Positions 18,001-21,000 of a stretch of 64,000 nucleotides of DNA are shown here, in pieces; positions within the stretch are counted from its first letter, which is position 1; each line of letters begins with the position of its first letter. A program made the position numbers. Origin of the DNA: Escherichia coli (lineage in GTDB: Bacteria; Pseudomonadota; Gammaproteobacteria; Enterobacterales; Enterobacteriaceae); the NCBI RefSeq assembly GCF_017348835.2, contig NZ_CP071375.1; one strand, 5' to 3'.

Positions 18001-21000
18001 ATGGGCTTCTCGCTCCTAGATAACTTATTCCTTCAAATGTCGCCATGTCATACACATATTCATTTGTTTCTCTATCGTTTGATTTAGGTTTGCTTGCCCA
18101 GCTTATATTAATATTATAAATTTGATCTTTGATTTGTTCATACTTACAGAGATTGCTGGTAAGTGATTGCCCATTTTTTAACACGCTTACCTTACTAAAC
18201 GGAATCTCACTTTTTTCTCTATGCTCCGCATTTACTAGTGGAGGATCAAACACAACCTCAACATTATAGGCAGGTGCGTTCCCTGTATTAGCAATGTTAA
18301 TATCAAAGTAAAAAGCGGCCCAAGGGTTTGGCTCAAGTGTTACAACTATATGGGGTTGAGCTGATGCGTCAACCATTCTTTTTGTCTCGTCTGCTCTGAA
18401 GTGGTGAAGTGGTTTACTGAATTTGGCCACCTGAACAGAGGTGATATGCTCACCTCAGAACAACACAGGTGCTCCAATGAAAAAAAGAAATTTTAGCGCA
18501 GAGTTTAAACGCGAATCCGCTCAACTGGTTGTTGACCAGACATACACGGTGGCAGATGCCGCCAAAGCTATGGATGTTGGCCTTTCCACAATGACAAGAT
18601 GGGTCAAACAACTGCGTGATGAGCGTCAGGGCAAAACACCAAAAGCCTCTCCGATAACACCAGAACAAATCGAAATACGTAAGCTGAGGAAAAAGCTACA
18701 ACGCATTGAAATGGAGAATGAAATATTAAAAAAGGCTACTGTAGATTCAATCTGTCAATGCAACACCCCTTTCAATTATCTCTTTCGGTGTTTTGAACTT
18801 CAGTGTCTTTCTCGGTCTGTTGTTTAGCTGAGCAGCAACCAGATCTAGTTCATGTTGAGTATATTGGGCAAGACATGTCTTTTTAGGAAAGTACTGCCGA
18901 ATTAGCCCATTTGTGTTCTCATTTGTTCCCCGCTGCCAAGGACTCTGAGGATCGCAGAAGTAAACTTTAACGCCGGTGCTGACAGTAAATTCTAGATGTC
19001 TGGCCAGTTCCATTCCTCTGTCCCATGTCAGTGATTTTCTGAGTTCTGACGGTAAACTCAGGAATTTGTCGGTAAGAGCCTGATTTACTGAGACAGAATC
19101 TTTGCCCCTGAGTCTAAGGATGATCGTATAACGTGATTTTCGGTCTACAAGTGTGGCTATATGAGAGTTTTTTGTACCTGAGACTAAATCGCCCTCCCAA
19201 TGCCCCAGAGAGCGTCTGTTATCGATATTTCGGGAACGTTCGTGAATTGGTGTTCCGTTCACTATGTTAATCGTACCTCTTTCGCCTTTGCGGGTATGAC
19301 GCCTGCCATGGCGAAGGCTATGCGACCGTCGCAGATGCTGTATATTCAGGTGGTGTAGCGCTTCACGGCTACGAAAGTACAGCGTTTTATAAATTGTCTC
19401 AGGTGATATTCGCAGCGTTTTTTGACGTGGTTTTGTTCGCCTTAACCATCCTGATATTTGCTCTGGAGACCATTTCATCTCCAGCTTTTCCAGAACAAGC
19501 TTTCGCAATGGTAAATTTTGATCCAGTAAGCACGGTTTTGGCCTTTTCGCCATTCTGTTGGCTCGGTTATTAGCATCAACAGCTTTGTAATAGCGTCTGC
19601 CCCGATTACGCTGAACTTCACGTGAGATCGTCGAAGGACTGCGATTCAGCGCAGTAGCTATCGCACGAATGCTCATTTTGGCTGACAAACCAGCTCGTAT
19701 CTCCTCGCGCTCAGACAGTGTCAGGTGAGCTACAGCCCGCTTATGCTCATGGGGTTTTATGCCGCCAGTATCCCTTAACATAGTGAAGATCGTTCCGGGT
19801 TTTGAACCCAGGATATTCGCTATTTCACTGAAGCCTGTTCCGTTCTTCCATAGTTCAAAAACAGAGGCTTTTTCCTCTGCTGTAAATGTTCGTCTCATTC
19901 AAAAAACCTCCGCAACCCCATGTTTTCACATAACTGTTGCGTTGACCAATTGAATCTACAACCGCGCTCTTGATGTCAGACTCCCTGAACAGTTCTCGAT
20001 AATCAGGAAACTCAGAGCGCATTATCCTGTGGTCACACTCTGCCATGTGTTCGGGGTTCATCGCAGCAGCTACAGATACTGGAAAAACCGTCCTGAAAAA
20101 CCAGACGGCAGACGGGCTGTATTACGCAGCCAGGTACTTGAACTGCATGGCATCAGCCACGGCTCTGCCGGAGCAAGAAGCATCGCCACAATGGCAACCC
20201 GGAGAGGCTACCAGATGGGGCACTGGCTTGCTGGCAGACTCATGAAAGAGCTGGGGCTGGTCAGTTGCCAGCAGCCGACTCACCGGTATAAGCGTGGCGG
20301 TCATGAGCACGTTGCTATCCCGAATCATCTTGAGCGACAGTTCGCCGTAACGGAACCAAATCAGGTGTGGTGCGGTGATGTGACCTATATCTGGACGGGT
20401 AAGCGCTGGGCGTACCTCGCCGTTGTTCTCGACCTGTTCGCAAGAAAACCAGTGGGCTGGGCCATGTCGTTCTCGCCGGACAGCAGGCTTACCATGAAAG
20501 CACTGGAAATGGCATGGGAAACCCGTGGTAAGCCCGTCGGGGTGATGTTCCAGGCGATCAAGGCAGTCATTATACGAGCAGGCAGTTCCGGCAGTTACTG
20601 TGGCGATACCGGATCAGGCAGAGTATGAGTCGGCGTGGAAACTGCTGGGATAACAGCCCAATGGAGCGCTTCTTCAGGAGTCTGAAGAACGAATGGGTGC
20701 CAGCGACGGGCTATGTAAGCTTCAGCGATGCAGCTCACGCAATAACGGACTATATCGTTGGATATTACAGCGCACTAAGACCGCACGAATATAATGGTGG
20801 GTTACCACCAAACGAATCAGAAAACCGATACTGGAAAAACTCTAACGCGGAGGCCAGTTTTAGTTGACCACAACAGACTACCTGAAGGGAGCCGCGGTCG
20901 CCTAGCAGTTGCAGTAGCAGGAGATCATCCAGCCGCAGTACAGGTCACGATGACTCTGGTTAATGATACCGGCTTTGACCCCGTATTTTCCGGCTCTATC

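Follow-up and report, generated by a model that had tools for sequence, protein, structure and literature searches.

The window, the whole stretch of 64,000 nucleotides of E. coli DNA that was analysed, carries an IS911-family element on the plus strand at 18405-20875 with an IS30 nested within it, a composite of 2471 bp. The locus lies beside the ferric-citrate (fec) genes. Without IS30 the host element measures 1248 bp, or 1249 bp when one lost base is restored, as is typical of an IS911-like element of about 1250 bp, and its termini are 5'-TG ... CA-3'. Its left end begins TGAAGTGG... and its right end reads ...CACAACA, with the two ends matching at 23 of 36 positions. The left arm (18405..18739, 335 bp) contains the left terminal repeat (18405-18440) and the first 88 codons of orfA, which begins at 18477. 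The right arm (19963..20875, 913 bp) contains the last 12 orfA codons with the stop codon at 20000-20002, orfB, and the right terminal repeat (20840-20875). The right boundary had been placed at 20872 by an earlier sequence-only reading of this DNA, but the true end is at 20875, where the tip ...GTTGACCACAACA is the right end of an intact ISEc52, base for base. A truncated or mutated right end (AACA for TTCA) was suspected first; this idea was dropped given that intact ISEc52 has the identical ending, and alignment identifies the tip GACCACAACA as a native ISEc52-type end.

The nested IS30 is complete and occupies 18740..19960 on the minus strand, with its IRR at 18740-18765 and its IRL at 19935-19960. 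Its position inside orfA, its length of 1221 bp and the 2-bp AC target duplication (18738..18739 on the left and 19961..19962 on the right) are as originally claimed. The terminal repeats, however, had been called perfect and are not, as the 26-nt arms are complementary at 23 of 26 positions (88%) and only the outer 12 bp are identical. Over the 1221 bp there are 2 and 3 nucleotide differences from K-12 IS30D and IS30A, respectively. The transposase gene (18747..19898, minus strand) is an intact 383-aa open reading frame that differs from K-12 InsI by one or two residues (R52H, and L261V relative to InsI1 only) and that matches the Pfam families HTH_38 (82.5 bits) and rve (53.1 bits), both above cut-off. 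The element displays the features looked for in an IS30, namely a length of 1221 bp with 26-bp imperfect inverted repeats, near-identity to known copies, a 383-aa protein with HTH and DDE (rve) domains, and a 2-bp target duplication.

Alignment and translation bear out that both reading frames of the host are broken by or alongside this nested insertion and that the host is dead in cis. The A-AAA-AAG slippery heptamer at which the programmed -1 frameshift takes place lies at 18728..18734 on the plus strand (element position 324), and IS30 starts 5 nt 3' of it, parting the heptamer from the downstream sequence and from orfB. With the slippery site cut off from orfB in this way, no OrfAB transposase can be produced. 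What remains of orfA is a fusion frame at 18477..18827 (plus strand) encoding 116 aa, of which 88 are OrfA residues and 28 come from IS30 sequence; in strain S88, PGAP annotates the part corresponding to 18477-18734 as "transposase, incomplete, missing C-terminus". Deleting IS30 together with one AC restores a 100-aa OrfA, as had been anticipated.

The second lesion is the frameshift already noticed in orfB, and it is real. The gene is split into frames at 20029..20628 and 20625..20867 by a 1-bp deletion at 20552|20553 relative to both reference elements. At 20550..20555 (plus strand) one C has been lost between 20552 and 20553 and an A-to-G change is present at 20553, which converts the reference CCACAGC to CCAGGC within the His-Ser codons located two codons ahead of the second catalytic Asp (HSDQG). 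Adding one base back yields an uninterrupted 389-aa OrfAB that is 96.9% identical to the ISEc52 OrfAB, while the unrepaired product stops at 309 aa. The repaired OrfAB matches Pfam HTH_Tnp_1, rve and rve_3 above cut-off, although this is a reconstruction, as both frames are broken in the window; in the same reconstruction, orfA and orfB lie in the 0 and -1 frames with the A6G heptamer, as is characteristic of IS911-like members of the IS3 family. The deletion is common to the K-12 IS911B-1, the O26 copy, the copy in strain 2313 and two plasmid copies. That the break in orfB is nothing but the programmed -1 frameshift that normally joins orfA to orfB can be dismissed as virtually impossible, even though a frame change is part of every IS3-family transposase annotation, since alignment has already refuted it: the programmed site is at element position 324 and the break lies about 600 bp further on, at position 926, where a base present in both references is absent. 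The description of the host as a fossil holds for its capacity to move itself. It is too strong as an absolute statement, as both 36-bp ends are intact and might still be mobilised in trans.

Comparison with two PGAP-labelled copies, the IS911 of Shigella flexneri pWR501 and the ISEc52 of E. coli plasmid NZ_CP019905.1 (IncI1), which served as references in place of ISfinder entries, revealed that neither matches the host element throughout. The pWR501 IS911, a member of the IS3 family with 36-bp ends, a 100-aa OrfA, an A6G -1 frameshift and a DDE OrfB (PMC2909936), shares this organisation. Overall identity to it is 95.0% (1187/1249) but is uneven, being near-complete at element positions 69-473 and about 93% from position 503 on. 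Only 6 differences fall in the first 500 bp, 3 of which are at tip positions 9-11, and the right tip of the pWR501 copy reads ...CACTTCA in contrast to ...CACAACA in the window. Identity to the PGAP-labelled plasmid copy of ISEc52 is 96.5% (1205/1249), with both tips identical and 4 differences over positions 503-1249; about 35 differences fall at 69-473, where the window element is IS911-like. The ISEc52 copy is itself intact and uninterrupted. At diagnostic sites the element is IS911-type at 36 of 38 between positions 69 and 473, and ISEc52-type at positions 9-11 (TTT) and at 52 of 53 from position 503 to the end, which places the switch from IS911 to ISEc52 between positions 473 and 503. 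Judged from these alignments, the host element is an IS911/ISEc52 mosaic with an IS911-like orfA and with ISEc52-like tips and orfB. The label IS911 is therefore only approximate, as it fits orfA and does not fit either tip or orfB. Mosaic IS911/ISEc52 elements are common.

The composite, together with both of its flanks, is present in 678 of 5426 complete E. coli genomes. It recurs with both flanks at 100% identity in many independent complete genomes, so it does not stem from faulty assembly. Though genuine, the structure is commonplace and already known, being annotated in K-12 and found in hundreds of sequenced strains. The K-12 annotation lists IS911B, IS30D and an insO pseudogene, while PGAP labels the left part "incomplete" and the right part "frameshifted, incomplete" in S88, a strain with which the window is collinear at 99.6% identity over 13450-32571, compared with about 98.5%, with offsets, for the flanking core. 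In MG1655 the corresponding IS911B/IS30D/IS911B-1 structure (insO pseudogene b4623, insI3 b4284) resides in the KpLE2 region beside fecE. The two share the right junction with yjhV and fecE, the position, orientation and left junction of IS30, the 1-bp deletion in orfB, and the last ~390 bp of the host, which are identical from the first ISEc52-type diagnostic site at position 863. They differ in that K-12 has a 327-bp IS600 fragment replacing about 120 bp of host after IS30, is of the canonical IS911 type in its left arm and in orfB up to about position 728, and has a slippery run of five A's only. Additionally, the K-12 left tip is TGAAGTGGCAC without a doubled octamer, and its left flank is yjhE.

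The doubled octamer that had been noticed at the left end of the host is present as TGAAGTGGTGAAGTGG at 18397-18412, such that an extra, exact tandem copy of the first 8 bp of the host, TGAAGTGG, lies at 18397..18404 on the plus strand. The flank beyond it is a 5'-truncated DUF8453 gene on the minus strand (17804..18396), annotated as a 190-aa frame at 17804-18376 and open to the junction; IS-free homologues, which were found solely in P2-like prophage contigs and are about 70% identical in protein sequence, encode 230 aa with an N-terminal hydrophobic helix. Since these IS-free homologues stop matching the window at 18395/18396, the extra octamer is not native flank. On the other side, a 5'-truncated yjhV-like fragment (20878..21207, plus strand) is open to the host end, with a frame at 20794..21207 that crosses the junction. 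In K-12 this fragment is listed as pseudogene yjhV; the S88 annotation gives it as an 85-aa "NAD(P)-binding domain" fragment. It had no Pfam match. The 3-bp target duplication is absent around the host, the left flank reading TGG (or CTC, should the extra octamer be assigned to the element) and the right flank GAC. We read this absence as a sign of later flank rearrangement and not as evidence against membership of the IS911-like family. The flank remodelling that was originally suspected is supported, mainly by new evidence: a 3-bp target duplication is missing around the host, each neighbouring gene has lost its 5' end where it meets the element, and K-12 has the right junction in common with the window but a different left arm and left flank. 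Taken by itself, the doubled octamer gives no clue as to which flank was remodelled.

The doubling always accompanies the same left flank, both in all 4 metagenome contigs and in all genome contexts that have it, a pattern that points to a single historical event. The exact DUF8453 protein occurs in 10 distinct contexts, all 10 of which carry the doubled octamer and the element, as do all 461 genomes that match a flank query at 80% coverage or more. Among the 477 genomes with any match to that query, a single one falls below 99% identity. In E. coli, no empty site was found, whether one in which the DUF8453 gene directly meets the yjhV-like gene or one in which it keeps its native upstream region. 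It is very improbable that the target DNA had the octamer by chance and that the host is a simple, undisturbed insertion. The one thing in favour of this view is that an IS911-family element might insert beside end-like sequences, and IS911 insertion adjoining its own ends was reportedly described by Loot et al. in 2002 and by Rousseau et al. in 2008. Chance is nevertheless expected to produce only ~0.01 such octamer matches per window, 20 IS-free homologous loci have CTGCTAATAGCC in place of the window CTGCTCTGAAGTGG, and a simple insertion would fit neither the missing 3-bp duplication nor the two truncated neighbours.

We therefore favour, with a probability of roughly 93%, a history of the region that comprises a mosaic element, a loss in orfB, an IS30 insertion and a flank rearrangement. 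At least four separate events would be recorded here, and their numbering is for reference, as it mostly does not establish their relative order. In the first event, a recombinant IS3-family element of the IS911/ISEc52 lineage came to adjoin the fec operon. In the second, orfB lost one base just ahead of the codon for the second catalytic Asp. In the third, IS30 would have inserted by its normal pathway, through a circular or dimer intermediate and a 2-bp staggered attack that duplicated AC, into a putative preferred site 5 nt 3' of the A6G heptamer, thereby cutting off the last 12 orfA codons. In the fourth, either IS-mediated deletion or recombination of one IS copy with another would have rearranged the flanks, leaving as probable remnants the lack of a target duplication, the two truncated neighbours and the 8-bp tandem copy of the left tip.

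Strains of serotypes O26, O103 and O111 carry the host element at the same locus without IS30 and with a 3-bp scar. These copies read GGCTACAACCGCG where IS911, ISEc52 and the window element minus IS30 all read GGCTACCGCG, and the 3-bp scar is in frame for orfA as well as for orfB. Deleting 1220 bp between the CTAC tetramers at 18736-18739 and 19956-19959 yields the scar exactly, and loss of IS30 through these microhomologies explains it. This agrees with what has been described for loss of ISApl1, a member of the IS30 family, and of IS30 itself, which involves 2-4 bp of microhomology and a deletion whose length differs from that of the IS by a few bp at most. The O26-type scar is in this respect like the decay of Tn6330 by loss of ISApl1, although the process is seen in related strains and the window keeps its IS30. 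It could be argued that the uninterrupted copy is instead the ancestral state that preceded IS30, as it agrees with the window element in every other respect, down to the doubled octamer, the lesion in orfB and the way the right end reads. We regard this as improbable, since insertion of IS30 with a 2-bp duplication into the longer sequence GGCTACAACCGCG cannot give the window junctions, while the CTAC-CTAC deletion reproduces the scar and matches the described pattern of loss. Additionally, these serotypes carry the IS-excision enhancer (IEE), a stimulator of IS30-family excision, and the serotype suggests that IEE may have taken part in forming the scar. Strain 2313 has the exact GGCTACCGCG site; its origin by a single gene-conversion tract from canonical IS911 was considered and rejected, as the intervening diagnostic sites are unchanged.

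The IS30 target lies in a 26-bp IS911 segment, TTAAAAAAGGCTACCGCGCTCTTGAT, that has been entered more than once. In K-12, IS911A/IS30A (insN pseudogene b4587, insI1 b0256) occupies a different chromosomal site, in prophage CP4-6, and has IS30 at the identical AC that follows the A6G heptamer, with this dinucleotide again duplicated. Its left tip is TGAAGTGGTTT. It differs from the window composite in that its IS30 is inverted, its backbone is ISEc52-like throughout and its right part is truncated at about element position 790. The opposite-orientation junction is present in 1024 genomes, and the junction in the same orientation as in the window also occurs on a canonical IS911 backbone in plasmid pSFO157. 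The target shows weak symmetry, with 6 of 11 matches (top 3.5% of positions within the host element), and is similar in its left half to TTAAnAAAGG, the sequence into which IS30C inserted in K-12. Olasz et al. reportedly defined a 24-bp consensus for IS30 targets in 1998. Because in K-12 IS911A the same AC has received IS30A the other way round, the site after the A6G heptamer is probably an IS30 hot spot, a call based on its recurrence and its weak symmetry. Consistent with this, IS30 is known to prefer near-palindromic hot spots and to reuse preferred sites (PMC9333248).

It is conceivable, if doubtful, that there is no hot spot and that one ancestral IS30 insertion in one IS911-family copy was carried to further copies and replicons by homologous recombination between IS copies. 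The frequency of mosaic IS911/ISEc52 elements implies that copies recombine often, and IS30 has the same orientation in the chromosomal fec copy, in pSFO157 and in a Salmonella plasmid. However, the inverted IS30 in K-12 IS911A::IS30A, at the same dinucleotide and with the same AC duplication, requires a second insertion, and reuse of preferred sites by IS30 is documented (PMC9333248). Only two insertions are certainly independent, while the same-orientation composites on different backbones could come from recombination and not from repeated insertion.

In itself the composite is of little import, and its comparative by-products, namely the use of one dinucleotide by IS30 in either orientation and the 3-bp CTAC-microhomology scar in O26/O103/O111 strains, are of modest interest to researchers of transposition. 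For annotation, the host is best given the bounds 18405-20875 and the label IS911/ISEc52 mosaic, with both neighbouring genes flagged as truncated. Around the mobile fec island, the three states of this single locus could also be used to mark lineages. More broadly, we propose tentatively, and at somewhat less than even odds, that the frameshift window of IS911-family elements is a conserved hot spot for IS30, whose repeated insertion would disable these hosts just where their transposase is put together, and that in IEE-bearing lineages IS30 may later be lost by microhomology deletion to leave a 3-bp scar. If this is true, the composite, scar and exact-site alleles at fec would document, in nature, how insertion sequences compete and how IS30-family elements are excised.

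The nesting of an IS30 within an IS911-family (IS3 family) element beside the fec genes is real, and the interpretation given by the sequence-only reading is essentially right. Reading of the sequence at 17800-21500 together with the ORF listing places a complete IS30 of 1221 bp at 18740-19960, with a transposase ORF (18747-19898, minus strand) of 383 aa that contains HTH_38 and rve above the Pfam cut-off. As had been claimed, AC is duplicated (2 bp) around IS30, with both junctions (...AAAAAAGGCTAC|IS30|ACCGCGCTC...) reading AC. The nesting and the length also stand, but the terminal repeats described as perfect are not, as a repeat finder returns inverted arms of 26 nt with 88% complementarity (23 of 26 positions), and identity between the arms is confined to the outer 12 bp. 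There are 2 nt differences from K-12 IS30D and 3 nt from K-12 IS30A, amounting to one or two residue differences from the K-12 transposases. At residue 52 the window's transposase has His, whereas InsI1 and InsI3, the two K-12 copies used for comparison, have Arg. This IS30 is intact and, judged from its sequence, presumably active.

Once IS30 and one AC are subtracted, 1248 bp of host element remain (18405-18739 plus 19963-20875). It was aligned with the Shigella pWR501 copy (labeled IS911 by PGAP), an intact plasmid copy (labeled ISEc52 by PGAP) and two K-12 "IS911" remnants. Its right end (...GGCCAGTTTTAGTTGACCACAACA) is identical, base for base, to the intact ISEc52 end, so the element ends without truncation at 20875 and not at 20872 as first proposed. 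The left tip (TGAAGTGGTTTACTG) is of the ISEc52 and K-12 IS911A type, whereas canonical IS911 has CAC in place of the TTT. Over its whole length the element is 95.0% identical to IS911 and 96.5% identical to ISEc52, and those two share 92.5% identity with each other. Among sites that distinguish these two, positions 9-11 are ISEc52-like, 36 of 38 within positions 69-473 are IS911-like, and 52 of 53 from position 503 to the end are ISEc52-like. The host element is an IS911/ISEc52 recombinant, which makes the name IS911 approximate only.

Both reading frames of the host element are broken. Removal of IS30 restores the orfA frame as predicted, giving a 100-aa OrfA with the expected C-terminal end, while orfA in the window encodes 88 native residues followed by a 28-residue tail read from IS30. 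The insertion lies 5 nt after the A6G heptamer (18728-18734), cuts away the 12 final codons of orfA and puts 1.2 kb between the slippery site and orfB. OrfAB of IS911-family elements is made by -1 frameshifting at the A6G site (PMC2909936), and because IS30 separates this site from orfB, OrfAB cannot be produced. The frameshift reported in orfB is also confirmed by alignment; one C is missing between 20552 and 20553 and the following A is replaced by G, within the His-Ser codons directly ahead of the second catalytic Asp (HSDQG). Unrepaired OrfAB stops at 309 aa, and addition of one base yields 389 aa that are 96.9% identical to ISEc52 OrfAB and carry HTH_Tnp_1, rve and rve_3 (Pfam). The lesion, a true mutation, lies some 600 bp away from the site of programmed frameshifting. 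The IS30 insertion and the orfB deletion together leave the host element dead in cis, which bears out its description as a fossil. Since both 36-bp ends are intact, it may conceivably be mobilisable in trans.

No 3-bp duplication surrounds the host element, the adjoining bases being TGG on the left (CTC if the doubled octamer is counted in) and GAC on the right. The left flank (17804-18396) holds a DUF8453 gene annotated as 190 aa (17804-18376, minus strand), homologues of which occur at 20 viral-collection loci with about 70% protein identity. These homologues are 230 aa long with an N-terminal hydrophobic helix. Their DNA follows that of the window upstream from the internal ATG as far as the end of AGCAGACGAGACAAAAAG and is wholly different beyond it, with CTGCTAATAGCC at the place of the window's CTGCTCTGAAGTGG. 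The full-length homologues and the point of divergence indicate that about 40 N-terminal codons have been lost from the left gene. The same divergence point identifies the octamer at 18397-18404 as a tandem copy of the element's tip and not native flank; thus the doubling noted earlier at this boundary derives from the host element itself. At the one homologue locus for which gene neighbours were listed (L020, 2369-3061), its neighbours are tail-fibre-like genes on one side and tail-sheath/tube-like genes on the other, an arrangement typical of cargo genes in P2-like prophages. Its partner in the window is an AbiJ_NTD4 gene (16931-17755).

On the right, a yjhV-like frame is open up to the host element's end in the ORF listing. 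This ORF (20878-21207), a pseudogene in the K-12 annotation and a fragment in S88, has no Pfam match, although PGAP names it as a fragment with an NAD(P)-binding domain. Apparently it is the remaining 3' portion of a longer gene that the host element interrupted. Two unrelated 5'-cut genes without a target duplication imply that the present flanks did not result from one simple insertion. The same left flank with the doubled tip is found in all genome contexts of the DUF8453 gene, and 4 of 4 doubled-tip metagenome contigs share the window's left flank; the doubling is locus-specific. The extra octamer may have arisen by slippage during replication, by one copy inserting into another's tip before the outer copy was deleted, or as a by-product of a deletion that took out intervening DNA. 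At about 855 in another locus (L018, IMGVR_UViG_2547132278_000017), an unrelated IS-end-like sequence abuts the DUF8453 gene with no IS911-family junction, and homology to the window begins at 18364, 32 bp further into the gene. Collinearity of 16313-16397 and 29600-36000 with S88 (L045) puts the composite in an island directly after tRNA-Leu, with no integrase adjoining the tRNA. On its two sides the fec operon has this composite and a degenerate IS1F, accompanied by IS3, IS5 and IS66 fragments.

Of 5426 complete E. coli genomes, 678 carry the 3.3-kb composite together with both flanks at a query coverage of at least 80%. Identity is 100% in many of them, and examples of carriers are S88, ATCC 11775, O157:H16 and ML35. 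The K-12 MG1655 annotation has a variant at this same position near fec, consisting of IS911B, IS30D, a 327-bp IS600 fragment, IS911B-1 and an insO pseudogene. K-12 shares with the window the right junction, the position and orientation of IS30 and the orfB deletion, but it is of canonical IS911 type in the left arm and in orfB as far as position ~728, and its left flank is yjhE with a single tip. Sharing of the right part only indicates that recombination within orfB swapped the left part together with its flank. The proposed remodelling of the left flank is supported by this comparison, and the right junction is the conserved one. In K-12 (L001, 8681-9007) the IS600 fragment replaces about 120 bp of the host element directly after IS30D, suggesting that IS600 inserted and that a deletion then extended from the end of IS30. 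In O26:H11 a complete IS600 lies within the DUF8453 gene, some 130 bp away from the host element. Further mosaics include two plasmid copies with the same orfB deletion and a metagenome contig (L043) with the same left junction and a right half that is 88% identical. A 373-kb record typed as plasmid (L048, pOHT76-1_1, NZ_CP135245.1) has the same orfB deletion and right junction (element end plus yjhV-like ORF), a different left-arm mosaic and no IS30. This record suggests that the segment beside fec travels between replicons.

At this locus the host element is uninterrupted in 120 genomes; among the best 30 of these, 29 have a 633-bp match (3 bp over the query) and one an exact 630 bp. O26:H11 11368 (L003 5320-5345, equivalent to window 18736-19959) has GGCTACAACCGCG in place of the GGCTACCGCG found in the references and in the window once IS30 is removed. 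The former is the exact product of a 1220-bp deletion between CTAC at 18736-18739 and CTAC at 19956-19959; both AC copies are retained, as is the final A of IS30, and the 3 extra bases are in frame in both orfA and orfB. For ISApl1 and IS30, loss has been described as involving microhomologies of 2-4 bp and deletions close to IS length, and by their match to this pattern the 3 extra bases are probably a microhomology scar of IS30 loss. Scar-bearing strains belong to O26, O103 and O111, serotypes reported to carry an IS-excision enhancer that stimulates IS30-family excision, a link made here by serotype. The exact unscarred GGCTACCGCG with the doubled octamer occurs in strain 2313 (L017, ~1970) and in contig L043 (OEQT01000187.1), and is either a candidate never-hit allele or a candidate product of precise excision. 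Strain 2313 differs from the window's element at four positions, two of which are IS911-type alleles. The right flank of L043 differs from that of the window and, together with its 88% right half, marks it as another recombinant.

The same target has been used elsewhere. K-12 IS911A in prophage CP4-6, ISEc52-like throughout, carries IS30A at the identical AC with the identical duplication but in the opposite orientation, and is thus an independent insertion. Junctions of this IS911A::IS30A type occur in 1024 genomes, and the window-type junction on 148 plasmids, one of which, pSFO157, has the full composite on a canonical IS911 backbone. IS30 uses near-palindromic hot spots, and K-12 IS911 has been drawn as interrupted by IS30A (PMC9333248). 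The target in the host element is symmetric at 6 of 11 positions, within the top 3.5% of element positions, and in its left half it is similar to the site where IS30C inserted in K-12. We infer that the AC after A6G is probably an IS30 hot spot.

The nested structure is already known, being annotated in K-12 and RefSeq genomes and mentioned in the IS30 literature, and its importance is consequently low. The present analysis corrects its description, with imperfect IS30 repeats, a boundary at 20875, a host element that is an IS911/ISEc52 mosaic, an octamer derived from the element and truncation of both neighbouring genes.
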